Below, in pieces: positions 24,762-42,538 of a DNA stretch of 64,000 nt. The notes beneath the pieces were generated by a model. It saw only the letters and a program-made list of their open reading frames with translations, was not told the origin of the DNA and did not search any database. The position numbers and the translations under genes were made by a program. The stretch is from the IMG/VR virus record IMGVR_UViG_3300027983_000009, positions 18,681 to 82,680 of that record. One strand, given 5' to 3'. Origin of the DNA: a virus. The stretch's first letter is position 1, and every line of letters begins with the position of its first letter.

Positions 24762-24862
24762 TCTGCAGAAATGAAGCCGCTGCAGAGGCATGCCTACCAC
24801 TGTACGCTGAACTTGAGGCAGGTCAACTTCACAGGTAAAAAATTGTGTAACAGCACCACGGA
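24762..24862 (-). promoter_or_regulatory. Antisense promoter+hairpin mini-cassette, copy 1
   Basis: Minus strand: TTGACC-N16-TACAGT, then GCC TC TGCAGC GGCTTCATT TCTGCAG. Confidence 0.65.
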
Positions 24863-24896
24863 ATTACGAGATAACGAGAAACAGAGGGGACTAGAC

Positions 24897-26619: not shown

Positions 26620-27027
26620 ATGATTGATGAGGCGGCACCAGATACACCCTATGTCAGAGCAATCCAGAAAAGGTTGGAGTTGCTCCAGCATATGCTAGGC
26701 GCCACCAGCCAGAAGAGACCAGCAACGTGGGGTGAGAGAAATTACTTCTGTGCCGAGATAGGCAGCGAAGACCACACTGTGCTGGTCAGTATGGTTGAAG
26801 AGGATCTCGTGCAGGCTGGCGGCACTATCAACGAGGGTACCGACCAGTATTTTTTCGCCACCAGGGCGGGGGCGCAAGCCATAGGGATGAGCAAAGCTGC
26901 TATCGGCAGAATGATCGATCGGCAGAGGGCGAGGACTAAGGCCCGGCAGGACGCTGCCGCTGTTGCAGCCGCTGTCGCTGCAGCTGCTGAGGGTAGTGTA
27001 GAGCCCACTGAGGGCGACGCTGTGTAA
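26620..27027 (+). CDS. Hypothetical phage protein (H.LG…RNYFC…F.AT..G)
   Basis: GGAG RBS, 135 aa. Confidence 0.7.
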   Translation: MIDEAAPDTPYVRAIQKRLELLQHMLGATSQKRPATWGERNYFCAEIGSEDHTVLVSMVEEDLVQAGGTINEGTDQYFFATRAGAQAIGMSKAAIGRMIDRQRARTKARQDAAAVAAAVAAAAEGSVEPTEGDAV

Positions 27028-27057
27028 CTCAGATACTTATTTTTCGCGGGAGCAGAG

Positions 27058-27357
27058 ATGCCAATTTACAGGGTTATAGTACGCACGATGTTCGAGATTG
27101 ATGCAGAGTCAGAACACGCAGCTAGAGTGCAGGCGTTTGAGGCTGCCGATAACTGTCTGGAGGAGACCCACGACACATTCCAACGATGTCGAAAGCGTGA
27201 CCAGTTGTACGGACGCATCCACAGCGCCAATGACGGCAATCGTACGCTGTGCGGATTACCGATGGACGAGCGGTGGTGGATCCTGACCACAGACGGCAAA
27301 CACGCTCCAGAGTGTGACCAGTGTGCCGTATACGGACTAACAGAGAGCAGCAAATAG
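27058..27357 (+). CDS. Hypothetical zinc-binding protein
   Basis: H…TLCG…CDQC. Confidence 0.65.
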   Translation: MPIYRVIVRTMFEIDAESEHAARVQAFEAADNCLEETHDTFQRCRKRDQLYGRIHSANDGNRTLCGLPMDERWWILTTDGKHAPECDQCAVYGLTESSK

Positions 27358-27363
27358 GAGACG

Positions 27364-27756
27364 ATGATGTTCAAAGTAATGATCAACCCGAAGCCGGAAG
27401 AGCAAGGCACCGGCATCACCAGTGTGCGAAGGTGGGAAGACCCGGAGGTACTGGACAGCCTGCGTAAACTGTTCGACATGACCAGCAACGAAGTTCTGCT
27501 ACAGCTGGAGATCAGCAAGGCAGGCATCGTAGGGAGGTTTGGTCGCACCGCGGTTACGCCCAAACAGAAAGACAGCTGGATCTACACCAGCGAAAAGATG
27601 CCCCAACCGGGCGAGCGTGTGCTGGGTATGACTGAAGATGGTATGTGGGCTGTGGTAATATGGACGACCAAGTACGTACCTATGCTGTACGTGCCGTCTG
27701 TTGACACTACCACGCAGTGTAAACCAGTCGTGAAATGGAAACGCGTAACACTATAG
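27364..27756 (+). CDS. Protein with a C-terminal DUF551-like domain
   Basis: WIYTSEKMPQPGERVL…VVKW; AGGAG RBS. Confidence 0.65.
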   Translation: MMFKVMINPKPEEQGTGITSVRRWEDPEVLDSLRKLFDMTSNEVLLQLEISKAGIVGRFGRTAVTPKQKDSWIYTSEKMPQPGERVLGMTEDGMWAVVIWTTKYVPMLYVPSVDTTTQCKPVVKWKRVTL

Positions 27757-27814
27757 TGTCCGCGTTGTGACTCTGGTTATTAGTAACAGACACTACAACT
27801 GAAAGAGAGTATAC

Positions 27815-28135
27815 ATGACCACAGAATTGCCGAAGTACGTTTGTCACAAAGAGGTGCGAGCGCTAAAGATCGCAAGAGTGGCGAAGCACGCTCACTCAGA
27901 CCCTAACGTAGATGACGCGACGTTTGAGGCGTCATCTGTATTCCAGGGGGCGCACCTGATGCCGGAGCGAAAGGACTTCCTGCCGGTCCCGGTCGACCCA
28001 GCGTGGTATCGGAAACACAAACCGTCAGGTGAGGGCTACTACGTTGTGTACGCTGACGGTTACACGTCGTGGTCACCGGTTGAGGCGTTTGAGCAGGGTT
28101 ACGTATTGGCAGATGAGCCGAAGACAGGAGAATGA
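27815..28135 (+). CDS. Conserved small phage protein (Y..HK.V.ALKI…GYYVVY.DGY.SWSP..AFE.GY)
   Basis: Recognisable widespread phage family motif. Confidence 0.8.
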   Translation: MTTELPKYVCHKEVRALKIARVAKHAHSDPNVDDATFEASSVFQGAHLMPERKDFLPVPVDPAWYRKHKPSGEGYYVVYADGYTSWSPVEAFEQGYVLADEPKTGE

Positions 28136-28413
28136 CCGTGAGCAGCGACTCTACGTGCCCATACTGTCAGCAGGATGGTATGGTCACAGAGTCAATGTCT
28201 GAAGACGAGGAGGTCGAGGTAGAGTGTGGAGGTTGCAGTGAGACGTTCATAGTCACAGCCTCGGTTCGTGTGCTGTATAATGTATCCTGTGCACCGGGTA
28301 AGCACGACCTGCGGCCAAACAAAAAACACGACGGCTGGTACAACTGCAGCAAATGTGACTCATTCTTGAATGAGGTGATCCACCAAGACGAGTTCACCAA
28401 ACCAGCCAGCTAG
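28132..28413 (+). CDS. Zinc-ribbon protein
   Basis: CPYC…CGGC…CSKC. Confidence 0.7.
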   Translation: MTVSSDSTCPYCQQDGMVTESMSEDEEVEVECGGCSETFIVTASVRVLYNVSCAPGKHDLRPNKKHDGWYNCSKCDSFLNEVIHQDEFTKPAS

Positions 28414-28468
28414 GTAGCGTATTTTAACGCAGCGGAGTAGACCCGTGTACGAAGAACGGAGAAGACCT

Positions 28469-28666
28469 ATGCATATCGATGAGGTGCAGGCAGACGTGGA
28501 TGACGTCACCAAAGCTGCAAATGAGCTTGTAGAGCACCTGACCACCGCGGAGTGTTGTGAGACTATAGAGGACCTTCAGGTGAACCTCGAGAATGCTGTG
28601 CGTACAGCTGGCGAGATTCAGGCAGCCGCAAAGAGGCTGCATAAATTGGCAATGCGACTACGGTAG
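28469..28666 (+). CDS. Hypothetical helical protein
   Basis: GGAG RBS then ATG at 28469. Confidence 0.6.
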   Translation: MHIDEVQADVDDVTKAANELVEHLTTAECCETIEDLQVNLENAVRTAGEIQAAAKRLHKLAMRLR

Positions 28667-28691
28667 TCGCGAGCGTGATAGTGTTTAGTAT

Positions 28692-28717
28692 GCCTACTTG
28701 GGGGCTTCGTATCCAAG
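28692..28717 (+). repeat. Dispersed hairpin element, CTTGG/CCAAG stem variant
   Basis: GCC TA CTTGGG GGCTTCGTA TCCAAG; near-identical to 20023. Confidence 0.75.
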
Positions 28718-28746
28718 CTGCTCCGGTTGAAAGGGATGTGGCTACT

Positions 28747-29046
28747 ATGTCTAAATCATCTGAAGCTCTACAGCGTGCGTTCATAGCAGACCCCGGAGCT
28801 ATCCGGTCGCTGATGTTGAACAGAGCGCCGTGCAATGCGGCTCTGGTTGACCATGAATTTGTTCCGGTTGAAAGAGATATGTGTATGCCGGGGGCGCATT
28901 TCACAATCAGCGCTATTGGGCTGGTCAACGCAGTACTTGCAGCGAACGGCCTGCCGCTGGTTGCAGGTATGTGGGAGGATGGCGAAAAGGTAGGGTGTGA
29001 CAATTTTGTAGGGTTCTGTGAGTGCACACCAACTGTAGAGATCTAA
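28747..29046 (+). CDS. Hypothetical phage protein (AF.ADP.AI..L…R.PCN..L..H)
   Basis: ATG 28747 downstream of the hairpin element. Confidence 0.65.
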   Translation: MSKSSEALQRAFIADPGAIRSLMLNRAPCNAALVDHEFVPVERDMCMPGAHFTISAIGLVNAVLAANGLPLVAGMWEDGEKVGCDNFVGFCECTPTVEI

Positions 29047-29062
29047 TCTAAGGAGGTGAGCC

Positions 29063-29278
29063 GTGGATGCAGATAACCTAATAGCGAGAGCCAGAAGGCA
29101 GCAAGTTGTCGGCAATGGCAAGGCGCAGATTGCGGCCCTCGTGTACGAACTGGAGATGCGGGAGGCTCAGGTGGGCGGTATGACAATCCGCTTGCATGAA
29201 GCTGAGTCACAGTTAGCGAACTACATCAAACTTATTAAGGAAGGCGCAGCTAGGCGTCTTAAGCAAGGGGGTGTATAA
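29063..29278 (+). CDS. Hypothetical protein
   Basis: AAGGAGGT RBS plus GTG. Confidence 0.65.
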   Translation: MDADNLIARARRQQVVGNGKAQIAALVYELEMREAQVGGMTIRLHEAESQLANYIKLIKEGAARRLKQGGV

Positions 29279-29568
29279 TGTTCAATAGACACAATAATAT
29301 GGATGGGATGGCGGCACTAGCCAGTTCCGGTTGGGGTGGTGTTACTTCGTGTGGATATCCCAGTGATAGTGCGGGTTACTGCGAGTAGGGCTACCCAAGA
29401 CGGGTTGCCAGCCCAGCTCGTTGTTGTGTTTCCGCAAGGTAGGCTGTGTGTCGAGGATATGAGTGGCGACTGGCAAGCTGTGCGGACCCCGCCAAAGATG
29501 TTGAAGACAGTCGCGATGAGAGAGCAAGCAGCGGTAAGCCCCGTAGCAAACACCAGACAGGAGTAGAT

Positions 29569-29928
29569 GTGGGAGAATTTGAAAAGTCAAAACTGCCAGT
29601 AACCTTCGAAGAGTGGGCCACACACCCCAGACCCAAACCGCTAGACGCAGACGCCCTGGAGCTGTGGCTAGCTGCGCAGGGGCGTTGTAAACCGTGCCCA
29701 TTTTGCGGCACAAGCCGTACGCTAGTGTCTAGCGAGCTGAACGCTCAGACTAATATTTACATCACACACATTGCCTGCAGTAACTTCAAGTGCTTCGTTG
29801 TAGTAGCAGGTAATTCGAGATACAGCCGATTGCAGGCACAGCAGGAGGCGTTTAACAAGTGGCAACGCAGACCGGCAGGAGTAACAGAAACAGGAGACAA
29901 TAACCCACCCCTCAAGCAGCTACCGTAG
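29569..29928 (+). CDS. Lar-like (restriction alleviation) zinc-ribbon protein
   Basis: KPCPFCG…C.NFKC…A..KWQRR; AGGAG RBS plus GTG. Confidence 0.6.
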   Translation: MGEFEKSKLPVTFEEWATHPRPKPLDADALELWLAAQGRCKPCPFCGTSRTLVSSELNAQTNIYITHIACSNFKCFVVVAGNSRYSRLQAQQEAFNKWQRRPAGVTETGDNNPPLKQLP

Positions 29929-29959
29929 CTGCTTTCATTATTAATAACCAACTTTACAT

Positions 29960-29986
29960 GCCGTTGCAGAGGCTTCGTGGCTGCGA
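29960..29986 (+). repeat. Dispersed hairpin element
   Basis: GCC GT TGCAGA GGCTTCGTG GCTGCG A, immediately before the RBS of 30003. Confidence 0.7.
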
Positions 29987-30002
29987 GAGAGGGTAGTGAA
30001 CA

Positions 30003-30311
30003 ATGACAAAAAACCAGCAATCTCTACCTGTGGGCGAGCGTCGGGTTCGTTGGGTAGCAGCTGAACGAGATGACTCTTCGTTCGTAACGGAGTACAGGCT
30101 TATCGTTGGCAAGCTTATTAGACGCGGCAAGATGCGGTGTGTAGCGACAGTCTGGGTTAAACCGGAATGCAACTATGCAACGTGGCACACGTGGGACATT
30201 CAAGGGACAGGTGGCGAGAATAGTGTTGAGTACGCCGACAGCTGCGAGGCAGCTACGCTGCAGGCTAAAGGTATGGCGTCATTAGCGGCAATTACTCAGG
30301 GTTTCGTGTAG
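30003..30311 (+). CDS. Hypothetical protein
   Basis: 102 aa, GAGGG RBS. Confidence 0.65.
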   Translation: MTKNQQSLPVGERRVRWVAAERDDSSFVTEYRLIVGKLIRRGKMRCVATVWVKPECNYATWHTWDIQGTGGENSVEYADSCEAATLQAKGMASLAAITQGFV

Positions 30312-30331
30312 GTAATCAGCAGGAGAGTAAT

Positions 30332-30544
30332 ATGACAGAGCCGTGCTATATGTTGAAGATAGCAGACAGGCTGACAGGGCATGCGCACTGTGGAGCGAGC
30401 GACGCAGAGGCTGCGGCAGACATCATCAGACAGGTGCACGGTATTCTGGTGCAGGTGCGGCAGCAGTATTTACTCCCGACAGAGGCCGGATACCGTGGAG
30501 GGCTGAGTCAGGAAGTGCGAGCACAGATCATGACACTACTTTGA
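30332..30544 (+). CDS. Hypothetical protein
   Basis: AGGAG RBS. Confidence 0.55.
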   Translation: MTEPCYMLKIADRLTGHAHCGASDAEAAADIIRQVHGILVQVRQQYLLPTEAGYRGGLSQEVRAQIMTLL

Positions 30545-30560
30545 AGAGGAGCAGAGAGAA

Positions 30561-30998
30561 GTGAAGAAACAGAAAGCAGCACTAACTGAGGCGCAGCAAC
30601 CACCAAAAACACTACGCGACTTAAAGGTCGGTGACAGCGTGTTTGTTGTGCATCAGCGTGGGAGGTGGGATCCTGCAGAGTATAGGACAGCGGTTGCCAC
30701 TGTGGTAAAGGTGGGTAGGTTGTACGCATACATTGAGCAGGGTGTGTACAGTGACCTGTCACCGTTCTGTCGCGACACTGGGTCTAGCGTCCACCCGGGT
30801 GATGGTAATGTGAGATCTAATAACCGCGGGTTTGATGTGCACCTGTCACAGCAAGGCTACCATGAATCCGGGCAGAGAAGCGCGGAGATGGCCAGGCTGA
30901 CCAGACGGATCATCGCGAGGATGGGTGATCTGATACAGCTACCGCCAGAAGTTGTGACAGCGATACACAAGCTGTTGGACGACGCCAAGCTGGATTAG
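30561..30998 (+). CDS. Small beta-barrel (SH3-like) phage protein
   Basis: LKVGDSVFVV…ATVVKVGRLYAYI. Confidence 0.65.
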   Translation: MKKQKAALTEAQQPPKTLRDLKVGDSVFVVHQRGRWDPAEYRTAVATVVKVGRLYAYIEQGVYSDLSPFCRDTGSSVHPGDGNVRSNNRGFDVHLSQQGYHESGQRSAEMARLTRRIIARMGDLIQLPPEVVTAIHKLLDDAKLD

Positions 30999-31018
30999 CA
31001 ACCCAGCCAATGTGTAGT

Positions 31019-31045
31019 GCCGCTGCAGAGGCGTAATATCTGCAG
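31019..31045 (+). repeat. Dispersed hairpin element upstream of the Cas12m-like gene
   Basis: GCC GC TGCAGA GGCGTAATA TCTGCA G; a second, unrelated hairpin lies at 31063-31089. Confidence 0.8.
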
Positions 31046-31129
31046 AGCCCAGAATATGGTGACAACCCTGCCGACGTTCGGCGGGGTTGGCAGCAAGCAG
31101 CAAACATCAAACAGAGAGCAGGAATCAGA

Positions 31130-33121
31130 ATGACTGAAGTAACACGTAACTGGTGTTATGGAGCCAAGGCGCCAACGTTGAATGCCGACATGGTGGACCA
31201 CCAGCTTTGGCTGGCCCACAATTACAAGAACCGGCACATCGAGCTGGAGCGGAACAGGCGAATTACTGCGGATGCGTTCGCCAGATCTCTTCACCCACAG
31301 TTCGAACTGGATGCCGCAGAATATGAGGTTGCAGACGCTGCAGTGGATGCAGCGTTCGACCTACTTAAAGCTGAGCGGATTGCGGCACGGAGCCGTGTAG
31401 ACGCGACGCCGGCGGTTGCTGCAGCAATCAGGGAAGCTAAGCGGATCCGGTGTGATGTAGGTGCTCGCAAGAAAATAAGCTCGAGAGCTGCATACAAGCT
31501 GGTCAATGAGTCGCAGGAGCCGTACAAAGAGAGAGCTGCGGCTGAGACAGTTATTCCGGAGGGGACAACCCCTGCAGCTCGTGATCAGCTGATTTATCGC
31601 AATAGGTTGGCGATGATGGAGGCGGCTGGCGTAGATGCCGGCGCCAAGGTGATGTACGACGCCAGACTCGCAGCCCGCGAAGAGTTCCGCGATCTTGGGC
31701 TGAATTGGGGCACCTACCTGACGGTGGAGGCTGCGACAAAGGACTACCACAAAGGAGCACCCCCGGAATTTCGCAGATTTGATGGTCGCGGGTCCATCGG
31801 TGTGCAGATACAGGTAGGCGGAGGATTAACGTATGCTGCTGCTGTTGCCTGCGCGAATACGTTTTTGAGAATTCAGTTGCCACCACTATCTGAGCGGTTG
31901 GCAACAACAGGCTCGGACAGCGGCGTGCAGGCTCACGGGGTGGCGTGGTTAAGGATCGGCTCAGTCGGACACCAACCGATCTGGGCGACAGTCCCTTTTG
32001 TGTACAGTCGCGAGATTCCGCACGATGCTGTAATCAAGTGGGCGTACCTGGACAGGGTTCGTGTCGGCCAGAAGTATCACTGGAAGCTGCGGCTTAACCT
32101 GAAGACTTCGCAGGTCAGGAGGCCGGCAGAGAACAGAGATATGGTTGCAGCCCATCTCGGGTACAGGCTGGTAGGCGAAGAAATCCGTGTGCTGACAACC
32201 TTGGATACCAGCGGAGAAGTAAGCACCCTCTCCATCTCGCGGGAAGAGGTGGCAGCGTTCGGTTACATGCGCAAGCTGGAGTCGATCCGAGAGAATGCCT
32301 CGAATCTGGTGACAGCAGCTCTCGGTCGCTGGTCGCGTGTAGCTAATATCTCAGAGTGGTTCCAGGAACATTCGGACAACATCTCAAGGTGGCGAGGCCC
32401 TGAGAGGATGAGTCGACTTGCCCGGTCTTGGCGTGATAACAGGTTCGACGCAGACCAATCTTCGTCTGCAGAGATTCCTGAGTTTTTGGAGTGGGCGCAG
32501 CTCAAGCTGGAGGAGTACCGGAGACAGCCGCACTATCGGCCGACCAACCCGGATGATTTGACTACAGTTTTCGGGGTGGTAGAGTTCTGGAGGAAGTACG
32601 ACAAGCACCTGTGTGAATGGTCGGCGAATCAGTCGCGGAAATGTATCGCAAGGCGTGAGCAGCTCTACAGGACATATGCTGCTAATTTGGCCAGGCGGTA
32701 CAACGCGTTGGCGATTCCGGATGTTGACTGGGCCGAGCTTCGAGAAAAGCCAGCGGTCGACGAGACAGATGCGCAGAGCAAGGAATTGCGGAGATTGGCA
32801 TCTATCGTCTCACCGGGCAGACTATCGGCAATCCTGGTCGAGGTGTTCAGCGACCGAGCTCACAAGACAGCCGCTCAGGGGATGACTATCATCTGCAATG
32901 CGTGCGGTAAGGTCCATGAGTTCGACAAGAAGCAGCGTGTGACAACTTGTGTCCACTGCGGGGCAACGTGGGACCAGGATGAGAATGCTGTCCGCAACAC
33001 GTTGGCAAATGGCCTGGTAAAGCGGGCGAGGGTAGAGTCCAGAAACGGGGCACCAGATCCGGACGCCCCTGTGAAAGTGCGAGCGGTCAGACGGGACCGG
33101 AGGAGACCTGCTACGACGTAG
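31130..33121 (+). CDS. Cas12m (type V-M/V-U1)-like TnpB-derived RNA-guided effector with inactivated RuvC
   Basis: QLWLAHNYKN…ER; L.WGTY..VE; F.RFDG.G.IGVQIQ; RuvC-I VAAHLGYR (His in place of Asp); RuvC-II LAIPDVD; SPG.L; CNAC/CVHC zinc ribbon; RuvC-III WDQDENA. Confidence 0.85.
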   Translation: MTEVTRNWCYGAKAPTLNADMVDHQLWLAHNYKNRHIELERNRRITADAFARSLHPQFELDAAEYEVADAAVDAAFDLLKAERIAARSRVDATPAVAAAIREAKRIRCDVGARKKISSRAAYKLVNESQEPYKERAAAETVIPEGTTPAARDQLIYRNRLAMMEAAGVDAGAKVMYDARLAAREEFRDLGLNWGTYLTVEAATKDYHKGAPPEFRRFDGRGSIGVQIQVGGGLTYAAAVACANTFLRIQLPPLSERLATTGSDSGVQAHGVAWLRIGSVGHQPIWATVPFVYSREIPHDAVIKWAYLDRVRVGQKYHWKLRLNLKTSQVRRPAENRDMVAAHLGYRLVGEEIRVLTTLDTSGEVSTLSISREEVAAFGYMRKLESIRENASNLVTAALGRWSRVANISEWFQEHSDNISRWRGPERMSRLARSWRDNRFDADQSSSAEIPEFLEWAQLKLEEYRRQPHYRPTNPDDLTTVFGVVEFWRKYDKHLCEWSANQSRKCIARREQLYRTYAANLARRYNALAIPDVDWAELREKPAVDETDAQSKELRRLASIVSPGRLSAILVEVFSDRAHKTAAQGMTIICNACGKVHEFDKKQRVTTCVHCGATWDQDENAVRNTLANGLVKRARVESRNGAPDPDAPVKVRAVRRDRRRPATT

Positions 33122-33139
33122 TCGGTTTGCAGTGCACGT

Positions 33140-33166
33140 GCCAGCTCTGCGGCTTCATGGCAGAGC
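33140..33166 (+). repeat. Hairpin element 18 nt after the effector stop codon (candidate guide scaffold)
   Basis: GCC AG CTCTGC GGCTTCATG GCAGAG C, perfect 7-bp stem; shares CCAGCTCTGCGG with the array repeat at 11226. Confidence 0.8.
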
Positions 33167-33210
33167 AAAGAGATGAAGAGCGAATATATGCCTCACACAG
33201 GAGATAGCTA

Positions 33211-33414
33211 GTGGTAGATCTGGGGAAAAGTAAACCAACCTCTCTCGGCACAACGTTGCGACAACTTGGATTTGACGAGACTGCGTATGACCGTACGACG
33301 AAGTATTACACACCGAAGTGCTCGAGCTGTCAGGCGGTGGTTGTAAACGGTACCGCGTGTCATGAACAGGGGTGCCCTAACGCGAGGCGGCCGACCGACG
33401 ACTATGATGATTGA
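33211..33414 (+). CDS. Small phage protein (CSSCQA.VVNG.ACHE.GCPN)
   Basis: AGGAG RBS; conserved Cys/His motif. Confidence 0.65.
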   Translation: MVDLGKSKPTSLGTTLRQLGFDETAYDRTTKYYTPKCSSCQAVVVNGTACHEQGCPNARRPTDDYDD

Positions 33415-33471
33415 TGTATGTGTTCTGCAGACACGAAGCTGCAGAGGCAGTAAACAGAAAGAGGGAAAACC

Positions 33472-33786
33472 ATGGGAAGAAGAAAAAGCAATAACAACTC
33501 GCAGCCTATTCAGGTTGCGACCAACGGTAAAGCGATAGCAGGCTACCGCCAAGGTATGTATTGGTTCGGCTGCAATGGCCGAACCGTTTATGGGCTGTGC
33601 AGTGCCTCGTTCAAAGATGAGCGAGACCTGCTACAGCAATACGACTCGGCGTTCGGGCACCGCGGGGCTGCAGGCGGCTTGATTCGCGTGTACGAAGACG
33701 GTGAGACTTTAGTTTTGCGTAAAGACCCGAAGCAGATTGCACAAGACGAGGAGACACAGCAACATGAGTCAGAGCTTCCAAATTAA
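33472..33786 (+). CDS. Hypothetical protein
   Basis: GAGGG RBS; a degenerate minus-strand element lies upstream at 33425-33448. Confidence 0.6.
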   Translation: MGRRKSNNNSQPIQVATNGKAIAGYRQGMYWFGCNGRTVYGLCSASFKDERDLLQQYDSAFGHRGAAGGLIRVYEDGETLVLRKDPKQIAQDEETQQHESELPN

Positions 33787-34090
33787 CTGCGAGTACAACG
33801 CAGCAACAGATGCGACTATCACACTTCCGGAGGGTCGACGAATTGAGGACATCAAGAGTTCGCACGTGGCGTATGATACGTTGTATATCCGTTTTAAGGA
33901 TGGCGAAGCTTGGGAGACCCGGCTCGACTCTGACAGTGAAGACAATATCGACTGGAATAGTCCGACAGCTGTATCAGTGCATGCGGTGTCAGATGACGGC
34001 GATGTAGACTACGACAGCGACCTGGCTAGCGAGTTCGGTATGGGTGACGTAGAGACTGACCAAAGCAGAGGGGGTATCCATGGCAGATAG
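33764..34090 (+). CDS. Acidic hypothetical protein
   Basis: GAGGAG RBS then ATG at 33764. Confidence 0.65.
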   Translation: MSQSFQINCEYNAATDATITLPEGRRIEDIKSSHVAYDTLYIRFKDGEAWETRLDSDSEDNIDWNSPTAVSVHAVSDDGDVDYDSDLASEFGMGDVETDQSRGGIHGR

Positions 34091-34520
34091 GTTCTATCAA
34101 CGTCTGACTATTGGCGGAAATCCGGGTGACGACTACATCAAGATCATGGACCTGCTCATAGACGAGACAGGTCTGGAATTTGAGGAGGAGTCATCCGAAG
34201 GCCTGGTAGTCGGGTGCAGCGATGCAGCCCCAGGGGATTTTGAGGAAGCTAAGACGGCCCTGCGAGAGGCAGGCCTGTCGTACGATCACTTCTGCGAGGC
34301 AAAGTGGGATCACGAAGGTGAGATCTGGTACTGGCGACCGGGACTGAACCCAGACGGAGAAACTGAGTGCCACGCGTGGTCGAGGCAGGGTGGGGTGCAG
34401 ACCGTTACCGTGGAAGACCTGCAAGAGTTTCTGGAGAGCGCCCAGACATTGCAGGAGGTGATCGATATGATTCGGATACCACCACTACCAGAGTGGGTAC
34501 AACCAAAGGAGGTCAGCTGA
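34080..34520 (+). CDS. Acidic hypothetical protein
   Basis: 146 aa, GAGGGG RBS. Confidence 0.7.
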   Translation: MADRFYQRLTIGGNPGDDYIKIMDLLIDETGLEFEEESSEGLVVGCSDAAPGDFEEAKTALREAGLSYDHFCEAKWDHEGEIWYWRPGLNPDGETECHAWSRQGGVQTVTVEDLQEFLESAQTLQEVIDMIRIPPLPEWVQPKEVS

Positions 34521-34723
34521 TGCCGGAGCACACGATTTGGCGAGATGGGAGTCTCTTCGATAAGATGGACCCGACTACACACGCGATCAAGCAGATTGCG
34601 GCCAGCTATTCGGATGATATGCACGGAAGTGTGTTTGAGGTAAGAGACGAGAACAGCGAGTCGTATTACTCTGCAGGACCTGTCACAGTACATCACGCTA
34701 AGCCGAAGGTACCTAAGAACTAG
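34520..34723 (+). CDS. Hypothetical protein
   Basis: AAGGAGG RBS, TGATG overlap. Confidence 0.6.
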   Translation: MPEHTIWRDGSLFDKMDPTTHAIKQIAASYSDDMHGSVFEVRDENSESYYSAGPVTVHHAKPKVPKN

Positions 34724-34752
34724 ATTCTTTAATGTTCTTCAACCCGTTAAGT

Positions 34753-34778
34753 GCCTACGCAGGGGCGACATATCTGCG
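34753..34778 (+). repeat. Dispersed hairpin element
   Basis: GCC TA CGCAGG GGCGACATA TCTGCG. Confidence 0.75.
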
Positions 34779-34994
34779 AATAGAAAGAGGTCAATATGCA
34801 GTACGTGGAATACATCGTAGCGATTCTGTTCACAGCGGCCCCGGGTTTGGCTGCTGTGTGCGCCTTTTGTGGCAACACAGTTGACGCAGGAGAGAAGCAG
34901 CAGCGGAGAGCTGGTGCCAGGTGTGTAGCAGCTCGCTGCGCAGCACGAGCTAAGTACCTGAGAACGCTGGATGAGTGAGCCTGAGCAATGCATC

Positions 34995-35020
34995 GCCCAC
35001 GCAGAGGCGTTATATCTGCG
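34995..35020 (+). repeat. Dispersed hairpin element
   Basis: GCC CA CGCAGA GGCGTTATA TCTGCG. Confidence 0.75.
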
Positions 35021-35067
35021 ACGTTGGCAAATAGCAGCAAACTAAAACCCACAACGGAGTATGCAAG

Positions 35068-35343
35068 ATGCAACTAAGCACAATTAAGTACACCGACAAA
35101 GTAACCTTAACAGACCACGAAGTGACAGGTGCGGCAGCACGGAGGTGCCGCAGGCGATTCATGTTGAGTGTGAAAGAGGTTGCAGTAGCGGCTGGCTTAT
35201 CACCCGTCTACCTCGCACAGCTGGAGGCGGGAGATATAGTCTGGACGCAGCCTGTGTTGGACGCCGTTACTAATGCGATCTACAGCCAACATAACAGCTC
35301 GCTCCCGCGTAAGCGCTTTGAACATCTATCCGGACAGTACTGA
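35068..35343 (+). CDS. XRE-family HTH protein
   Basis: R…LSVKEVA.AAGLSPVYLAQLEAG. Confidence 0.75.
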   Translation: MQLSTIKYTDKVTLTDHEVTGAAARRCRRRFMLSVKEVAVAAGLSPVYLAQLEAGDIVWTQPVLDAVTNAIYSQHNSSLPRKRFEHLSGQY

Positions 35344-35378
35344 CCGCGGATTACATTCCACAAATAGGAGTACCAGAT

Positions 35379-35708
35379 ATGCGAGTAGATGTTAGTGAGC
35401 TCAGTGAGCAACCAAGCGGCGGCACGGCCGCACCACGTGTAGAGGTTATGCCCGTCTTCAGCGGCGAGTCGTTCATCAGAACGCTGTCCTATCCGGTGAT
35501 TGTTGAGGCATGGAAGAAGAAAAACAGCGGTAGAGGTAAGCGAGCCTGGCTCGTGGAATTCACCGAGAAGGAGCGAGACCTCCTGTGTAAATGGCACGCC
35601 AGGTTCCACGACTGGCACTTGGTCTCCGGCACACCGGGTCGGGTTGTAATGAAATTGACAACGCTCGAGCTGCTGCAGCGAGCTGTTAACTTCTTTGCGG
35701 CTATTTGA
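35379..35708 (+). CDS. Hypothetical protein
   Basis: AGGAG RBS. Confidence 0.65.
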   Translation: MRVDVSELSEQPSGGTAAPRVEVMPVFSGESFIRTLSYPVIVEAWKKKNSGRGKRAWLVEFTEKERDLLCKWHARFHDWHLVSGTPGRVVMKLTTLELLQRAVNFFAAI

Positions 35709-35801
35709 ATCGCACACCAGCAACCTCCTCCGTTATGCATAACGGAGGCTTCGTATCTGCGGACGGCCGCAGCATCACATTCCACAAATAGGAGACATAA
35801 A

Positions 35802-36101
35802 TTGAAACCGTACACAGTGATCGGGCATTATAAGGACACCGGGTTGTTGTATTGCAGCATAAACCTCCACGCCGAGACCCCGGATGCTGCCGCTGCGTTG
35901 GTGGCAGAGCTGTACCCCGATGAGGACATTGCTATCAGCGCAGTGATTGCGGGGGAGCACGAGAGTGTGCTGGAGGGTGAATACCTGTTAGACACATCAA
36001 CCATAAGATCGTGGGGTACAGACGATGAAGGAAACGGTCCCAGTGTTTCAGCTGTTGTGCGGGTGCCCGACAACAGCAACAACGAAGTACAGAGCGGGTA
36101 G
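35802..36101 (+). CDS. Hypothetical protein
   Basis: AGGAG RBS plus TTG; leader ACATTCCACAAATAGGAG shared with 35379; degenerate element/palindrome at 35727-35761. Confidence 0.6.
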   Translation: MKPYTVIGHYKDTGLLYCSINLHAETPDAAAALVAELYPDEDIAISAVIAGEHESVLEGEYLLDTSTIRSWGTDDEGNGPSVSAVVRVPDNSNNEVQSG

Positions 36102-36298
36102 CAGGTGCTATCTGGACTTTATCTTCAGCGGACTTGTCCCAGCTAAAGTCCTGCGTGTGCTTGTATCCGGTCGCGGGTTCGTTAGCACAGAGGGTAGAGT
36201 CGAGGTTGAAGTCACAGAGTCCCGTGGTCCGTATAAAAAGGGTGAAGTTTCAAAGTAGGTCAGCTGATGCTTCTTTAATGTTCTTCAACCAGTTAAGT

Positions 36299-36326
36299 GC
36301 CTACGCAGGGGCGTCATATCTGCGTA
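36299..36326 (+). repeat. Dispersed hairpin element
   Basis: GCC TA CGCAGG GGCGTCATA TCTGCG TA. Confidence 0.75.
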
Positions 36327-36420
36327 TTGGAGCCGGCCAGCGTGGTCGTGCCGCCTAAGCACGTTATTCGTAGGCAGTATTCCACCAGTATCAACACAGC
36401 GTATGAATGGGAGAAAGACG

Positions 36421-36693
36421 ATGACAGAAAATAATCCAGGTGCGTGTGGCGGGGGTCAGTGCAGCCCGAAACGCGTACCGTACAAACCACCGCAAGCAAC
36501 GGTTATTAAGCGGCACACATTTTTCACAGCTGAAGAACTGGCGACGGAATTGGAAATGGATGCAGTCGAGATGCCGGGTAGGCAGCCCACCGTATTGTAT
36601 CTGGCACAAGACGTACAGAGTGGTGTGGCTGGTGAGGCGGTTGTAGCGTGGGTTCTTTGCGACGCGGTTAAACTATTCGGAAGACGGTCCTAG
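36421..36693 (+). CDS. Hypothetical protein
   Basis: GGGAG RBS then ATG at 36421. Confidence 0.55.
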   Translation: MTENNPGACGGGQCSPKRVPYKPPQATVIKRHTFFTAEELATELEMDAVEMPGRQPTVLYLAQDVQSGVAGEAVVAWVLCDAVKLFGRRS

Positions 36694-36731
36694 TGTTTCA
36701 GCACTAAATGAGTGAGCCCGAGAAACGTAGT

Positions 36732-36757
36732 GCCCCCGCAGAGGCGTTATATCTGCG
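36732..36757 (+). repeat. Dispersed hairpin element
   Basis: GCC CC CGCAGA GGCGTTATA TCTGCG, directly followed by a GGAGG RBS. Confidence 0.75.
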
Positions 36758-36770
36758 AAGGGAGGCGCTG

Positions 36771-36983
36771 ATGCTGAGGAAAGACACATTTCGAACGTCC
36801 CGGTACAAGGGTTACTGGATTCACACACACTACGAGTACGAGCGGGGCAGCCTGTTTGGCCACGAAGTTGTGAAAGTGCAGGATCCTGAAAACCTCTCTA
36901 GTAGGTTGGTGGTATCGGTCCGAGCTGCTAAGCTGCTAATCACCAAACTGATTAGTGCGAGCTCAGATACAGTTGCAGTGTAG
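36771..36983 (+). CDS. Hypothetical protein
   Basis: GGAGG RBS then ATG at 36771. Confidence 0.6.
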   Translation: MLRKDTFRTSRYKGYWIHTHYEYERGSLFGHEVVKVQDPENLSSRLVVSVRAAKLLITKLISASSDTVAV

Positions 36984-37086
36984 GCACACTACCGGAATAC
37001 ATTTGCGTAAACTGACCGTTGTTGAGATACTATCGACGGCAGCGTGTCAGTTACGCAGGCGTATTCGATGCGTAGGAGTATCTATC

Positions 37087-37254
37087 ATGAAAAACTGGAA
37101 AACGACAGCAGCTGGTATTTTGAGTGCGATTGTGCTGATAGCCCCACAGCTGTTAGCTCTGATTGACAACAACCCGTCTACACACTTTGATCTGTCCGTG
37201 GTACTTGCAGCGTTGAGTGTTCTCGGCATCGGCTGGAGCGCTAAAGACAAATAG
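37087..37254 (+). CDS. Small two-TM membrane protein (holin-like)
   Basis: MKNWKTTAAGIL…G..AKD; AGGAG RBS. Confidence 0.7.
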   Translation: MKNWKTTAAGILSAIVLIAPQLLALIDNNPSTHFDLSVVLAALSVLGIGWSAKDK

Positions 37255-37275
37255 GTTTATGTTTTACACAGTACC

Positions 37276-37301
37276 CCCAGCTCAGCGGGTTAGTAGCTGA
37301 A
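37276..37301 (+). repeat. Dispersed hairpin element, CCC/GGG class
   Basis: CCC AG CTCAGC GGGTTAGTA GCTGAA. Confidence 0.7.
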
Positions 37302-37324
37302 CAGAGAGTAGAAAAGGTGTTTGT

Positions 37325-37846
37325 ATGAACAGGCTAATCTCAGCAATCGTTGCGGTACTACTTGGCGCTGCCGGCTCCGCAGTTGGAGGGTACTGGAACC
37401 CGCAGGGGGTTGTCCCTGTTGGCGACGCGAGGATCCCGGCCCAGCTTGTCGGCTGGCTGATTACTGGGCTGACTGGCATTAGCGGCCTGTTCGGCGGGGC
37501 TGCGGTCCCGTGGAAAACCTGGATGGCTGCGGCTACGGCTAAGCTGAAAGCTGGGTTTGCTACCACTACACTGCCAGGTGCATTGTCGCGATTGCAAATC
37601 GACGCAGTACCCTATAACGGGTCGCATAAATCCTCGGTGTCGGCTGTACCGATTGCGGTAGAGCACCTGCAAGGGTGTGTCTACCACCTGAGGGTTGCAC
37701 TGAGAGATGACCGACCGGCGCAGGATCTGCTGGACCAGATTGCCGTCAAGGTTGGTAGAGTCACGGCAGAGGTCGGGCAGCATCCAGTTGCTCCAATTGC
37801 TGAGGTAGAGACATTTGCGACGCTGACGAAAGGTGGTGTAATTTGA
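37325..37846 (+). CDS. Membrane protein
   Basis: N-terminal signal/TM segment plus a second TM. Confidence 0.7.
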   Translation: MNRLISAIVAVLLGAAGSAVGGYWNPQGVVPVGDARIPAQLVGWLITGLTGISGLFGGAAVPWKTWMAAATAKLKAGFATTTLPGALSRLQIDAVPYNGSHKSSVSAVPIAVEHLQGCVYHLRVALRDDRPAQDLLDQIAVKVGRVTAEVGQHPVAPIAEVETFATLTKGGVI

Positions 37847-38295
37847 AGTACCTAATCTTATCCCTGTGTGTTCTGCTGTCCGGGTGCGTACAAGTACCTG
37901 GCGACACATCTAAACCCGCGTTACCGAACCTGCCATCCCCGTCGACGCCTGACGCGCAATTCGGGGGTGTCGATGAGACACTGGTGGCGAGAATCCTGCA
38001 GTCACCAGAATTGCAGGACGCCGCCAGACTGCGTCGCTATGCCGCTCTATACCGTGGGTTATCTGAGACGGTACAGCAGCCAGAGCTGCTACCTATGCAG
38101 GTACTGCAAGGCGGTATCAAAGCCACGGAGCAGTTTATAAAGCCCAGAAGCGCCGCCATGCAGGCTATCTTGGTGTCCCACCTACCCAAGCCGCCTCTGA
38201 GCGATAGCGACAGGCAGCGAATAGTGGACGCGTTTGGCAGCTTGTCTTTGGCGTGCCACGCTGCTGCTCACCGACTCGAAACTGGGGGTAAGTGA
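37843..38295 (+). CDS. Putative lipoprotein
   Basis: Lipobox LLSG-C followed by a Pro-rich linker. Confidence 0.7.
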   Translation: MKYLILSLCVLLSGCVQVPGDTSKPALPNLPSPSTPDAQFGGVDETLVARILQSPELQDAARLRRYAALYRGLSETVQQPELLPMQVLQGGIKATEQFIKPRSAAMQAILVSHLPKPPLSDSDRQRIVDAFGSLSLACHAAAHRLETGGK

Positions 38296-38296
38296 T

Positions 38297-39253
38297 ATGA
38301 CAATCACCACGGCAAATCTGAACGATTATTGTGGGTGGGGTCGTGTCGACTCCGTAACACCCAGAGAGCGAGTACTGGAAGCGCAGCGTATGGCTGACGA
38401 GACGGCGGCTGCGTTTGCCAAGCCGTTCTTCGTTGCTGGGCAGGTTGAGAGCGGGGCCGGGAAATGCGCAAGGCTGCATAAGGTTGTAGAGAAGGTGACA
38501 GGGAAGTCACTGTACATAGGGCCGCAACTCACAGGGGACTGCGTTTCGACCTCCAGTTTCATGACTGCACAAATACGCTCGTGCATAGAAATAGCGAAGG
38601 GGGACTTTGCAAACTACAAAAAGCTCTTTACCCCTTTCCATTACGCGACCGGTCGCGTACTGGTGGGCAAGAACCGACTTCGCGGCGGTGCTGGGTCTAT
38701 CGGCGGCTGGCAGGCGGAGGCGAACGCAACGTATGGCTGGCTCGCAGAGGAAGATAACGGAGGCTTGGTCTACTCGAAGGCTATAGCCGACGCGTGGGGC
38801 GACGACAAGAAGTCCCAGGGCAAGTCGTTCCGTGACTTCATGGTGGTCGCAAAAGACTCAAACCTCGAGCAGTGGAGCCGCGTCCAGTCGTGGAACGAGG
38901 CTCGCGACGGCATGTGGCACGGCTACCCACTTACGATTGGTAGTAATCGTGGGTATACGATGAAGCCCGACAAGGACGGCTTCCACAGACCATCCGGAAC
39001 ATGGTCTCACCAGCTCACACTTTTCGCATTCTGGGAGAATGTAAAGGTCCCAGCTGTAGCTATAGGTAACACCTGGGGAGGCGTACACGGGGAGGTTAAA
39101 GACCCTGAGACCGGCGAACCTCTGCCGAAAGGTGTACTACTTGTGCGGTTGGAGGATTTCGTTAAGTACCACTTGACGAGTTCCGCTGAGTGCATTGCTT
39201 ACAGTGACGTTAACGGATTCGGTGCTACGTTTGACTGGTCGGCGTTCGGCTAG
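38297..39253 (+). CDS. Papain-like (C1-type) cysteine peptidase
   Basis: Q..GDCVS, WSHQL and IGNTWG give the Cys/His/Asn triad. Confidence 0.75.
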   Translation: MTITTANLNDYCGWGRVDSVTPRERVLEAQRMADETAAAFAKPFFVAGQVESGAGKCARLHKVVEKVTGKSLYIGPQLTGDCVSTSSFMTAQIRSCIEIAKGDFANYKKLFTPFHYATGRVLVGKNRLRGGAGSIGGWQAEANATYGWLAEEDNGGLVYSKAIADAWGDDKKSQGKSFRDFMVVAKDSNLEQWSRVQSWNEARDGMWHGYPLTIGSNRGYTMKPDKDGFHRPSGTWSHQLTLFAFWENVKVPAVAIGNTWGGVHGEVKDPETGEPLPKGVLLVRLEDFVKYHLTSSAECIAYSDVNGFGATFDWSAFG

Positions 39254-39288
39254 GCTGCGGCCCGATAGTGACCATATGGAGAATTGGC

Positions 39289-40524
39289 ATGAAGAGAATT
39301 TTGGGATTGGTAGCAGTACTGCTGCTTACAGTTGGTTGCGGGCAGCTGCAGCTACCAAAAGTTATAATTGTGACACCGCTCAGCGAGCAGGATGTCCTTG
39401 ACGCGAGAGCGTTAGCCTTGATCGGTGCAAATGCAGACCTGGGCGCCACCATTGAGGAGGATGACAAGCCGCAGGCGTGCCCATGCGGAGGGACCGGCCG
39501 TAGCGGTGACGGTCTAGGGCCGTGCGAGTGTGCAGGCGGCTGCAAGTGTAAAGCTAGAAGTGCGGCACCGATCAGCGACCCTGACCCAGAGCCATCCCCG
39601 GTCGACGAGCTCGAACCCGAGGTGGCAGAGGACCCAGAACCTGTCAGTAGCGCCGCCGCAGTAGGTAGCGTGTCGGCAGAGGCGGAGCTGTTTCAGCAGC
39701 TCGCAGATACGCTGAAACAGTTGAGTGAGATTGATAAGTCGACTGCTACGGTTGTCTCAGCTTTGGATAAGCGAATTACTGCACTCGAAGCAAGCAGGCA
39801 GACTGCTACCACTGCTACGGTTACGAAAGCAGTGAACGACAGCCCTGAGCGGCAGCTGATCATCCTGTATACGGATAAAGACATTGATGCGATCGATACG
39901 TGGGAGACAGAGCAGGGATCCCAGTTGGTTGATGTTGGGTGGTCGGTGGGCACGGACTCTAGTTATCAAGTGGTGAAGCTCAGGATTGAAGCACCAGATG
40001 CCGGTCAGTATCAGCAGGCCTTGGAGCTCGCCACAAAGAACGGTACACCATACTGGGCTGTATTCACTGCAGCTAAATTTCAGAAAGGCGGCGTCGGCCT
40101 GCCGGCTGCTTCCGTTGTGTCGACGATGCTGAACACTAAGCTCGCACCAGCAACCAGTCAGCTGGAGCCTTGGAAGGCTATCCCTGAAACGTGGCCAGCG
40201 CGTGTCCCTATCAACGGTACGACAACACCATCCAAGCGGACGTTCGTGTCGCATTTGCGTGGCGGTGGGAAGGGTGGTGAAAAACATGTAACCAAGTACT
40301 TCCAGAGCTGGCCTCTAGAAAGTATGACGATCGGACAGCTTGCCACGCTGCACGATCAGGACCATTCGGCTAGCACTGTTACCAGCAACCAAGGGACCAC
40401 AACGCAGCCGACTGTGAAATACACACAGCCGACTGTGCAGTACATGCAGCCTACCCAGAGCAATCGGCGACGAGGTGGTCTCTTTCAATCTCGCGGCAAT
40501 TGCGCAAACGGGAAGTGCTTTTAA
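39289..40524 (+). CDS. Putative lipoprotein with a Cys-rich motif and C-terminal CxNGxC
   Basis: LTVG-C lipobox; CPCGGTG..GDG…CEC; terminal GNCANGKCF. Confidence 0.7.
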   Translation: MKRILGLVAVLLLTVGCGQLQLPKVIIVTPLSEQDVLDARALALIGANADLGATIEEDDKPQACPCGGTGRSGDGLGPCECAGGCKCKARSAAPISDPDPEPSPVDELEPEVAEDPEPVSSAAAVGSVSAEAELFQQLADTLKQLSEIDKSTATVVSALDKRITALEASRQTATTATVTKAVNDSPERQLIILYTDKDIDAIDTWETEQGSQLVDVGWSVGTDSSYQVVKLRIEAPDAGQYQQALELATKNGTPYWAVFTAAKFQKGGVGLPAASVVSTMLNTKLAPATSQLEPWKAIPETWPARVPINGTTTPSKRTFVSHLRGGGKGGEKHVTKYFQSWPLESMTIGQLATLHDQDHSASTVTSNQGTTTQPTVKYTQPTVQYMQPTQSNRRRGGLFQSRGNCANGKCF

Positions 40525-41288
40525 TGTCAGACTCTGCAGTATTCGTAACGCAGCTCCTGGGATTGCAGGTAGTGCAAGCCGGGCTGCTTGAGTGTGCCCA
40601 CAGCAGCGGTCCGCCGGTAGGTCAGACTGCTGACGGCCCTGTTGTGGGATTATTCCGTGTGCGGAGAGAGCTGGATGTGTCTCCGCAGGTTCAGAAGATT
40701 GCGGAGTCTGTATTGGACGGGGATAAGGATATCCGTATCGGCGGAATCCGCATTGTGATACCGGTTAGCAGGCAATACGTGTTTGCTACACCGCTGCCAG
40801 TATTCGTAGCAGCGGTAGGTACTGAGTTCAACGTATCGATTAGTAAGCTGGAGCTGATCCGGGACGAGCAAACCTCACAACCTGCGATCCTGGTTACGAC
40901 AGCTTCCAGCATCAAGCCAGACTTGGTTGTGGTGCTGGCGGTGTTGCCGGAAAATAAACCGGATACTGAGCCGTCGGGTTTTGATATCTCACTGATCACC
41001 ACCAAGTTGCTGCAAACCAACCGTGTCCCTGCGCAGCATACTGCTGCAATCATTAAAGCGACCCAGCACGCCTGGCGGACAGGGATGGCAACCCAAACAG
41101 CTTCGAGGATGCTGCCCAAGACAGGCAAGAAGGCATCACAGCACCAGCTTGAGGCTGCGGCTCGAGAGATAGTGAAACAGCTGGTAGATCAGCAGGTTGT
41201 CACGATGGGCCTATTTTTCTGGATGCGGCTGGGTTATTGGCTTCTCACTATTATCATGCTCCTTCTGGAGCAACCAGACAGCGACTAG
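40524..41288 (+). CDS. Hypothetical protein with a C-terminal TM
   Basis: TAATG overlap with the previous gene. Confidence 0.65.
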   Translation: MSDSAVFVTQLLGLQVVQAGLLECAHSSGPPVGQTADGPVVGLFRVRRELDVSPQVQKIAESVLDGDKDIRIGGIRIVIPVSRQYVFATPLPVFVAAVGTEFNVSISKLELIRDEQTSQPAILVTTASSIKPDLVVVLAVLPENKPDTEPSGFDISLITTKLLQTNRVPAQHTAAIIKATQHAWRTGMATQTASRMLPKTGKKASQHQLEAAAREIVKQLVDQQVVTMGLFFWMRLGYWLLTIIMLLLEQPDSD

Positions 41289-41331
41289 ACCGTTGTGGTC
41301 TTGCAGTCGTTTTTGTTTTTTTGGCTGTTAC

Positions 41332-41398
41332 GCCTCTGCAGAGGCTTCGTGTCTGCAGCTGAAGAAATGAAGCCTCTGCAGAGGCTTTGTGTCTGCAG
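41332..41398 (+). repeat. Two tandem hairpin elements plus an overlapping antisense copy
   Basis: GCC TC TGCAGA GGCTT[CT]GTG TCTGCAG at 41332 and 41372. Confidence 0.8.
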
Positions 41399-41462
41399 AG
41401 GCAGAGATACTGCGCCTGCGAATGGTGCATCATCAGTTCACTGTAGCTATGTAGGGAGTAAC

Positions 41463-41942: not shown

Positions 41943-41988
41943 TGTGAGCAGGCTTGTGCAACTACAGTCGGTGATTGGAGACTAAGCT

Positions 41989-42183: not shown

Positions 42184-42194
42184 CAGGAGACACA

Positions 42195-42509: not shown

Positions 42510-42538
42510 CCGCAGAGGCAGCAAACAGGACGTAGCGA

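Follow-up and report, generated by a model that had tools for sequence, protein, structure and literature searches.

A phage-borne Cas12m homologue with a degenerate RuvC triad and dispersed crRNA-type hairpins that may serve as Cas12m sites in mRNA leaders

A 64,000-nucleotide (nt) stretch of phage DNA (the window; positions 18681-82680 in an IMG/VR virus record of 82,680 bp with an estimated completeness of 57%) carries a gene for a type V-M Cas12m homologue with a degenerate RuvC triad (31130-33121, + strand). In the same stretch, 23 short hairpin elements are scattered over 36.6 kb (7231-43846), 20 on the + and three on the - strand. Judged from sequence and covariation, these elements appear to be diversified copies of the cognate CRISPR RNA (crRNA)-type scaffold of the Cas12m family, with its pseudoknot triplet, 6-bp stem and 9-nt loop. 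We tentatively read them as cis-acting sites in mRNA leaders, at which Cas12m would bind or process the message. The protein would be functional and dead only for DNA cleavage, and the regular array would have been lost in this lineage. We regard the case for this reading as close to balanced. Coordinates are window positions unless a locus (L...) is named, and gene calls come from the rough caller of this analysis.

The initial annotation had described a 663-amino-acid (aa) open reading frame (ORF) with the motifs VAAHLGYR and LAIPDVD, a zinc ribbon and DQDENA, and had called it Cas12m-like with a degenerate RuvC. All these features are present in the product of 31130-33121 (P0001). VAAHLGYR holds H342, LAIPDVD holds P530, and DQDENA holds D615 and D617. 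The zinc-ribbon cysteines are C589, C592, C607 and C610, and the RuvC domain is split, with an inserted zinc-finger TNB domain. The comparison with known structures bears the assignment out. In phmmer searches of PDB, P0001 matched 23vw_A, a chain named Cas12m, at E 3e-44 in two stretches (residues 208-443 and 479-626). Further matches were UnCas12m4a (E 2.7e-15) and Cas12m2 (E 2.9e-14), and TnpB chains reached only 0.25. The homology to characterised Cas12m extends across the WED, REC and RuvC parts. Profiles from Pfam, NCBIfam and PHROGs saw only the C-terminal zinc-ribbon/TNB end, below their cut-offs. By residue count in the phmmer alignment to 8hio, H342/P530/D617 lie opposite H317/D485/D579 of Cas12m2. 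These residues form the HDD triad of an enzyme that binds DNA and does not cut it (PMC10442227). Four Cas12m clades are described in that paper, with the triads HEK/HQK, HDD, DED/NED and DED/DND/NED, and the H-P-D triad of P0001 lies outside these.

Among 13 aligned relatives the four cysteines as well as D615 and D617 (the DQD motif) are invariant. His at the first RuvC position is common to the closer relatives, and the closest have Ala or Pro at the second. A database twin of P0001 (P0002, 99% identical) keeps all key residues. In two contigs of related strains (L009 and L010, ~97% identical to the window) 32 of 1989 gene bases differ, with a ratio of nonsynonymous to synonymous differences (pN/pS) of 0.12-0.14. 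Therefore, cas12m is kept under purifying selection.

A single-protein scan of IMG/VR with P0001 confirmed no homologue. Homologues came from alignment-based scans, which gave seven loci in viral contigs, 80 loci kept from metagenomes and one genome locus, in a Polyangiaceae metagenome-assembled genome. A regular array lies at most 600 nt 3' of the stop codon in 21 of 27 distinct loci that have a near-complete gene and at least 450 nt of downstream sequence. Of the six array-less loci, L045 has arrays ~940 nt downstream. One or two single repeat-model matches lie behind the gene in L089 (11443-11478), L032 (2814-2849) and L046 (12220-12727), and one of these loci is that of the Polyangiaceae genome. 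The array repeats of the family are 36 nt long, with a period of ~72. Twenty-five distinct repeats align without gaps and support a fold in which a 6-bp stem carries a 9-nt loop, and the three bases at the start of this loop pair with a triplet 5' of the stem. In this fold 88% of cells are paired, compared with 58% after shuffling, and none of 500 shuffles scored as high. All nine pairs vary on both sides, and pairing drops to 28-44% when the partner is slid by one to three columns. The fold matches the solved Cas12m2 crRNA scaffold (PMC10442227), which has a stem, a pseudoknot and a closing G:A pair, and a final C that is read by His269 and Arg270 of the WED domain. One spacer of the L012 array matches 20 nt (L012 11525-11544) within the cas12m gene of the same locus.

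A covariance model was built from the 25 external repeats only and run unfiltered over the window and the preceding 18.7 kb. Its best matches are intergenic + strand hairpins (at 41324, 42728, 29952, 7546, 33132, 34995 and others). Since the model is short, single E-values are weak, and all candidates were therefore placed in a fixed 36-column register. So aligned, 23 of 23 elements have a pseudoknot triplet that pairs with the first bases of the loop (16 GCC:GGC, seven CCC:GGG, none mixed), which is not an unbiased rate because the elements were picked by eye from several candidate sets. The stems have on average 5.5 of six pairs, with several pair types at most positions. Three kinds of element can be distinguished by triplet, stem and loop. 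A looser hairpin scan found 28 hairpins on both strands, compared with a mean of 9.7 (maximum 18) in 100 shuffles, and all 16 of its + strand matches fall among the 23 elements. A 15-nt core pattern has 24 matches where 6.0 are expected, and 0 of 100 shuffles reach 24. No elements were found in the 18.7 kb preceding the window or beyond 44 kb.

Several statements of the initial annotation about the repeats can now be made more precise. It had noted a likeness to type V-M repeats, and the alignment confirms it: stem, 9-nt loop and 5' pseudoknot are as in the 25 homologue array repeats, with all 23 elements in register. It had counted ~25 solitary repeats over 40 kb; the dispersed set is real, but smaller in number and span. 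The hairpins it had placed 84 nt before the start and 18 nt after the stop of cas12m are both there. The upstream one (31011-31046, +) ends with its 3' arm 83 nt before the ATG and is identical in strain L010. A second, unrelated 10-bp hairpin (31063-31089, +) lies between it and the start codon. The downstream one (33132-33167, +; 16.6 bits) follows the stop codon directly, at the site of the homologues' first array repeat, with the model start 10 nt, the pseudoknot triplet 18 nt and the stem 23 nt after the stop. The absence of an array holds for regular arrays, of which none was found in the 82.7-kb record. The sole array-like feature is an irregular, intergenic cluster of five elements (11062-11389, +).

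Most of the elements lie between genes and in the sense of the genes. Eighteen of 23 are clear of the rough gene calls in a region that is ~86% coding and ~14% non-coding (binomial 1e-11, with clustered copies that are not independent). Three of the remaining five overlap weak small ORFs or predicted starts; the last two are located within a chimeric small ORF and a long open frame, respectively. Twenty copies are in gene sense, so that they would be transcribed inside phage mRNAs. Six elements are followed closely by a start codon, which begins at position 12, 16, 16, 17, 17 or 22 after the element, with a Shine-Dalgarno-like stretch between. The ATG occupies positions 12-14 after element 36724-36759, positions 16-18 after 29952-29987 (19.2 bits) and 34745-34780, positions 17-19 after 7546-7581 (17.9 bits) and 10102-10137, and positions 22-24 after 37268-37303, which is of the CCC:GGG kind (all on the + strand). 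A scan of 27000-44500 for sigma-70 promoters and terminators was at chance level overall (11 found versus 10.3 expected).

The end of the scaffold differs from that of the family. All 25 array repeats have A as their penultimate base and at least 90% have C as the last; among the 23 elements only one ends in AC (34987-35022, +). In Cas12m2 this end is read by H269; 12 of 13 aligned relatives likewise have His at the position, and P0001 and P0002 both have Ser293 there, next to a conserved Arg294. The repeat-guide junction thus seems to be altered in both the protein and the RNA. In another phage record, G007, G takes the place of the final C in the array as well as in the dispersed copies, and its Cas12m has Asp at the presumed H269 position, which was placed by eye from a conserved motif.

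Phage-borne Cas12m is common in metagenomic phage records, and scaffold copies outside arrays were also found in other phages. Among the Cas12m phage records examined, the dispersed set of the window is by far the largest. Searches of the whole records G001, G002, G003 and G005 at E up to 1-2 gave matches only within the gene-adjacent array or next to it. The closest array-bearing homologue (L002 of record G004, 47% identity) has two extra tandem copies in its own cas12m leader (L002 9906-9975). The second ends 14 nt before the start, and the "guide" position of this leader copy is the ribosome-binding site of cas12m itself. A direct search adds a third solitary copy 7 kb downstream. G006 has a truncated cas12m (157-aa N-terminal fragment, L007 9986-10459) and four scattered repeat-model matches on the other strand. 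IUPAC patterns of the three element kinds, searched in IMG/VR, hit 0, 0 and 1 stretch, and led to G007. This record encodes a DED-type Cas12m and has a regular array that runs across the ends of the contig. Two of its genes are preceded by scaffold clusters of seven and four copies with short irregular spacers (L091 2900-3240 and 5160-5360), the first of which ends, with its last copy, 16 nt before an ATG. Three small groups occur in addition. The flanks of L013, the closest homologue, share no genes with this phage. The elements were therefore not inherited with a common backbone, and the build of scaffold, ribosome-binding site and start codon has arisen independently in at least three unrelated Cas12m phages.

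The Cas12m enzymes described in the literature bind the scaffold of the repeat and carry out the maturation of their own RNA (PMC10442227; 10.64898/2026.03.26.714355). PmCas12m cuts after repeat nt 2-3 and at guide nt 17-18 (10.64898/2026.03.26.714355), and the guide-target duplex of Cas12m2 is 17 bp long (PMC10442227). A scaffold within an mRNA should thus be bound as a repeat would be, and the RNA would probably be cut on both sides, once close to the scaffold's 5' boundary and once about 17-18 nt on the 3' side. If a start codon follows a scaffold at a distance of 12-22 nt, the guide slot would take up the ribosome-binding site, or the cut would separate this site from the coding sequence. 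Cas12m would then regulate those genes post-transcriptionally or process their transcripts, and would not be a DNA-targeting immune effector, and the element in its own leader could permit autoregulation. The shuffling of gene cassettes between strains would be a by-product, with dispersed repeats as crossover points. mRNA processing or binding sites had been named as a possibility in the initial annotation, beside a guide regulon. The sense orientation, the position in leaders and the frequent distance of 12-22 nt to a start fit the former better. A more far-reaching form of the idea is possible, and we consider it rather doubtful. It would have a genome-wide post-transcriptional operator system, in which scaffolds 12-22 nt before starts control about twenty small genes and cas12m, since the guide slot swallows the ribosome-binding site or trimming removes it, and in which the repeats also drive cassette shuffling.

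Several points weigh against sites in mRNA leaders. RNA binding, cutting and an effect on translation are all steps that we infer. Single covariance-model matches are weak (best E 0.0095, many above 0.1), and the uniform pairing of the triplet is in part a product of selection by eye. The distance to the start codon is not uniform: 12-22 nt hold for six elements, and others are 28-104 nt away. Element 10102-10137 lies within an open frame (9608/9749-11014). The three - strand copies have promoter-like sequence of their own, and a cis role in mRNA fails to explain them. Element 34987-35022 is missing before the same gene in L010, where ~770 other bases (767-771) are found instead, so this copy is dispensable there. 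The missing AC end may just as well be a sign that binding of Cas12m to the element copies has been lost. Finally, a regular array could lie in the 43% of the phage genome that the record lacks.

The initial annotation had favored a genome-wide guide regulon, in which scaffold and downstream sequence act in trans. Formally, a single repeat with its downstream sequence is enough for a distributed crRNA: the scaffold plus the next 17-20 nt would send the dead Cas12m to host, rival-phage or own DNA and silence transcription. Cas12m is described as silencing by DNA binding and as maturing crRNA from repeat plus guide in PMC10442227 and 10.64898/2026.03.26.714355, and cr-like RNAs that regulate distant promoters are reported for other CRISPR types in 10.1101/2024.12.27.630466. 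A promoter followed by an element and a variable tail, as in the - strand units, is also what a stand-alone guide gene would be expected to look like. However, the 17-20 nt after each element have no match with a flanking protospacer-adjacent motif (PAM) elsewhere in the 82.7-kb record. With a T-rich PAM none was found at up to four mismatches in 18 nt, nor with 10-12-nt seeds, and the same holds for G007. At the elements themselves, the end of the scaffold occupies the place of the PAM and is never YTN. Many of the "guides" are the ribosome-binding site of the next gene, and the spacers of the cluster vary irregularly in length (about 19-55 nt). When 359 spacers from homologue arrays were compared with this phage, only matches of 12-18 nt were found (best E 0.06; 37 chance-level). 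A regulon of distributed guides acting in trans is thus unsupported, because no guide target was found, and we consider such crRNAs unlikely.

Three individual candidates were set aside in the course of these searches. The guide match of element 42728-42763 is an 80-nt duplication and was rejected as a target. The guide of the element ending at 28719 matches 28861 with two mismatches behind TTT; it was not relied on, since a mismatch falls within the seed and the likeness may have come about by internal duplication. A TnpB-style "empty-site homing" was dropped, since the empty site in L010 has GAC before the guide match and not a T-rich PAM.

The - strand copies also bear on a role against host defence. 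Each belongs to a unit of the same build (24762-24865 with element 24762-24797, repeat family D14; 42539-42642 with element 42539-42574; and 43811-43914 with element 43811-43846), in which a conserved stretch of ~68 nt with a promoter-like -35/-10 pair is followed by the element and then by unrelated sequence. The stretch is conserved in all three units and ends exactly at the element; the scan found the promoter-like pair before two of the three. Phages carry solitary repeat units in intergenic DNA, often preceded by a promoter, that function as RNA anti-CRISPRs (PMC10651486), and multiplexed viral cr-like RNAs are reported to hijack host Cas proteins (10.1101/2024.10.29.618823). The elements could accordingly be RNAs of this kind (Racr/Cracr), which soak up or reprogram a type V-M Cas12m of the host, with clusters raising the dose. 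Both the cluster at 11062-11389 and those of G007 resemble multiplexed units, and a Lar-like restriction-alleviation gene lies in the same region. On the other hand, the phage has a matching effector of its own under purifying selection, and a decoy would titrate that too. The elements are of at least three kinds and lack the AC end, whereas mimics had to be at least 90% identical to known repeats in the published screen (PMC10651486). The Ser293 change, moreover, sits in the phage protein. We consider an anti-defence role improbable.

The comparison with related strains revealed a further property of the elements. Blocks that are colinear in the window and L009/L010 stop at elements or flank them, namely at 28718 (3' end of 28684-28719), at 29976 (inside 29952-29987) and at 34987 and 35020 (either side of 34987-35022). 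In L009 the element at 29952 is chimeric: its 5' half is kept, and its 3' half and the downstream gene are replaced. In contigs of three further runs from three studies, five of seven joints have an end in or at an element, where the contigs were placed at 88% likeness and assemblers also break at repeats. Among the five is an extra element copy inserted at 35694/35701 in variant strains, near a decayed element-like stretch of which the 3' half is recognisable (35725-35765, +). Joints lie at 36271 and 36325, by element 36291-36326 (+). Loose contig ends pile up at both edges of element 28684-28719 (+). Thus, the elements are points at which gene cassettes are broken and joined between strains. 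Shared elements are conserved: three element-plus-leader stretches have two differences in 254 nt, both in the unstructured 5' part, and synonymous sites of cas12m differ by ~4.7% between strains.

These breakpoints, the one chimeric element, the gain and loss of copies between strains and the lost AC end are all in line with hairpins that work without Cas12m. They would be ordinary stem-loops left by a dispersed array (RNase sites, stabilisers or recombination boundaries of cassettes), with an effector that acts elsewhere or idles. Against this stands the triplet, which is relevant only to a Cas12m-type fold and covaries in 23 of 23 elements over two kinds. Cas12m is under purifying selection, and scaffold copies recur in the cas12m leader of L002. 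G001-G006 have no such dispersed set at E up to 1-2; besides arrays they have the two L002 leader copies and one weak solitary match (G004) and four scattered matches (G006). Hairpins independent of Cas12m seem very improbable to us.

The remaining elements of the catalogue are all on the + strand. A solitary element lies at 7231-7266. In the cluster at 11062-11389, which precedes an ATG at 11426/11427, model starts are at 11062, 11153, 11218, 11299 and 11354, with a spacing of 91, 65, 81 and 55. A 19-nt motif occurs in six copies at 11018-11300, each just 5' of a scaffold copy, and nowhere else in the window (0.05 expected). It could be a promoter or a protein-binding site. In a blastn search of 10990-11430 against GenBank phages only two chance-level matches were obtained (E 5). 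The best match to the external-repeat model is element 41324-41359 (21.2 bits, E 0.0095). It stands in tandem with 41364-41399, whose palindromic core also reads as a - strand element. Element 42728-42763 (20.6 bits) lies at the junction of a chimeric small ORF, with a start like that of gene 43000 and an end like that of gene 42195-42509. Behind this element the 80-nt 3' end of gene 42195-42509 is duplicated (42449-42530 at 42763-42845), which gives a chimeric 49-aa ORF.

The genomic setting is that of a phage. Predicted genes are almost all on the + strand, and recognisable ones in the window are phage-like (thymidylate synthase, nucleotide kinase, several DNA methyltransferases, MazG). The initial annotation had seen no cas1/cas2 or transposase near the effector gene. 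Indeed, Cas1 and Cas2 profiles, which do fire on control genomes, gave 0 matches across the 82,680-bp record, and a Pfam scan of 22 ORFs neighbouring cas12m revealed no transposase family. A megablast search of 29000-35000 against GenBank phages gave no match. The gene immediately 5' of cas12m (30561-30998) has a match to the Pfam family "Phage ProQ C-terminal-like domain" (44.8 bits, E 2e-11) that exceeds the cut-off. Because proteins of the ProQ type bind structured RNA, the neighbour may be part of the same RNA-level system. Among the element-flanked small genes are those for a Lar-like restriction-alleviation protein (32.4 bits, above the cut-off) and a small helix-turn-helix protein (29569-29928 and 35068-35343, respectively). 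Several other repeats are coding. A 1012-aa ORF (12905-15943) consists largely of 12-nt (four-residue) periodic repeats (repeat families D1, D4-D7 and D9). About five tandem paralogous short genes at 16500-18700 have conserved starts and ends and Gly/Tyr-type repeats of 6 to 18 nt (families D2, D3, D10, D12 and D18). A long acidic, Asp-rich coding repeat and a six-copy 15-nt tandem repeat lie at 6970-7146 and 1309-1423, respectively.

If Cas12m does act at sites in mRNA leaders, a natural CRISPR effector would have been re-used on the transcripts of its own carrier, with a guide slot that reads mRNA leaders and not foreign DNA. This would link dead Cas12m, viral solitary repeats and cr-like regulatory RNAs. 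The phage offers direct objects for tests, namely short leaders with a defined spacing of hairpin and start codon, and a protein whose reader of the repeat-guide junction has naturally changed from His to Ser. The strain comparison also indicates that CRISPR repeats can serve as crossover points for gene cassettes. In the literature searched, no description of a Cas12m with dispersed cognate solitary repeats was found, although bioRxiv supplements may list such loci.

Parts of the arrangement have counterparts in known systems. In T4-type phages, promoter-stem-loop cassettes shuffle small genes. They share with the elements that repeated intergenic stem-loops border variable small-gene cassettes, but they are not CRISPR repeats and are not known to have a dedicated phage binding protein. 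TldR proteins are reportedly nuclease-dead, TnpB-like RNA-guided repressors that derive from TnpB and use one adjacent guide RNA. The re-use of a dead RuvC-family protein for gene control would be common to both; the protein of this phage groups with Cas12m (E 3e-44) and not with TnpB (0.25), and its scaffolds are many and dispersed. Closest in sequence is type V-M itself (Cas12m2 of Mycolicibacterium mucogenicum and PmCas12m), with the RuvC-I His of the HDD clade, the TNB zinc finger and a 36-nt repeat of stem and pseudoknot. In contrast, this phage has no regular array, only one repeat-like unit after the stop codon, a triad of H-P-D and a Ser in place of the His that reads C(-1). Its scaffolds are solitary, diversified and without the AC end, and the protein is phage-borne. 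The Cas12m of myxophage MV-1 is likewise phage-encoded and comes without cas1, cas2 and cas4, but it has an adjacent eight-spacer array and a DED triad, according to 10.64898/2026.09.14.751636. The claim made there of a first phage Cas12m holds by publication only, since several IMG/VR phage records hold Cas12m and an array. Standalone repeats and mini-arrays before cas genes such as cas12a (CreR/crlRNA; 10.1101/2023.03.03.530964) resemble the repeat-like units before the effector gene (31011-31046; L002 9906-9975). According to that source, they act through a partly matching, PAM-flanked target near a promoter, whereas none was found here in 82.7 kb. The viral solitary repeat units and Racr/Cracr RNAs (PMC10651486; 10.1101/2024.10.29.618823) are also single, repeat-like and intergenic, some of them preceded by promoter-like sequence and some multiplexed. 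In the published descriptions those are not cas-associated and mimic host repeats, whereas this phage has the cognate effector in its genome and ~23 diverged copies, mostly within operons and in gene sense. The arrangement is thus a variant of the known solitary-repeat and cr-like RNA systems.

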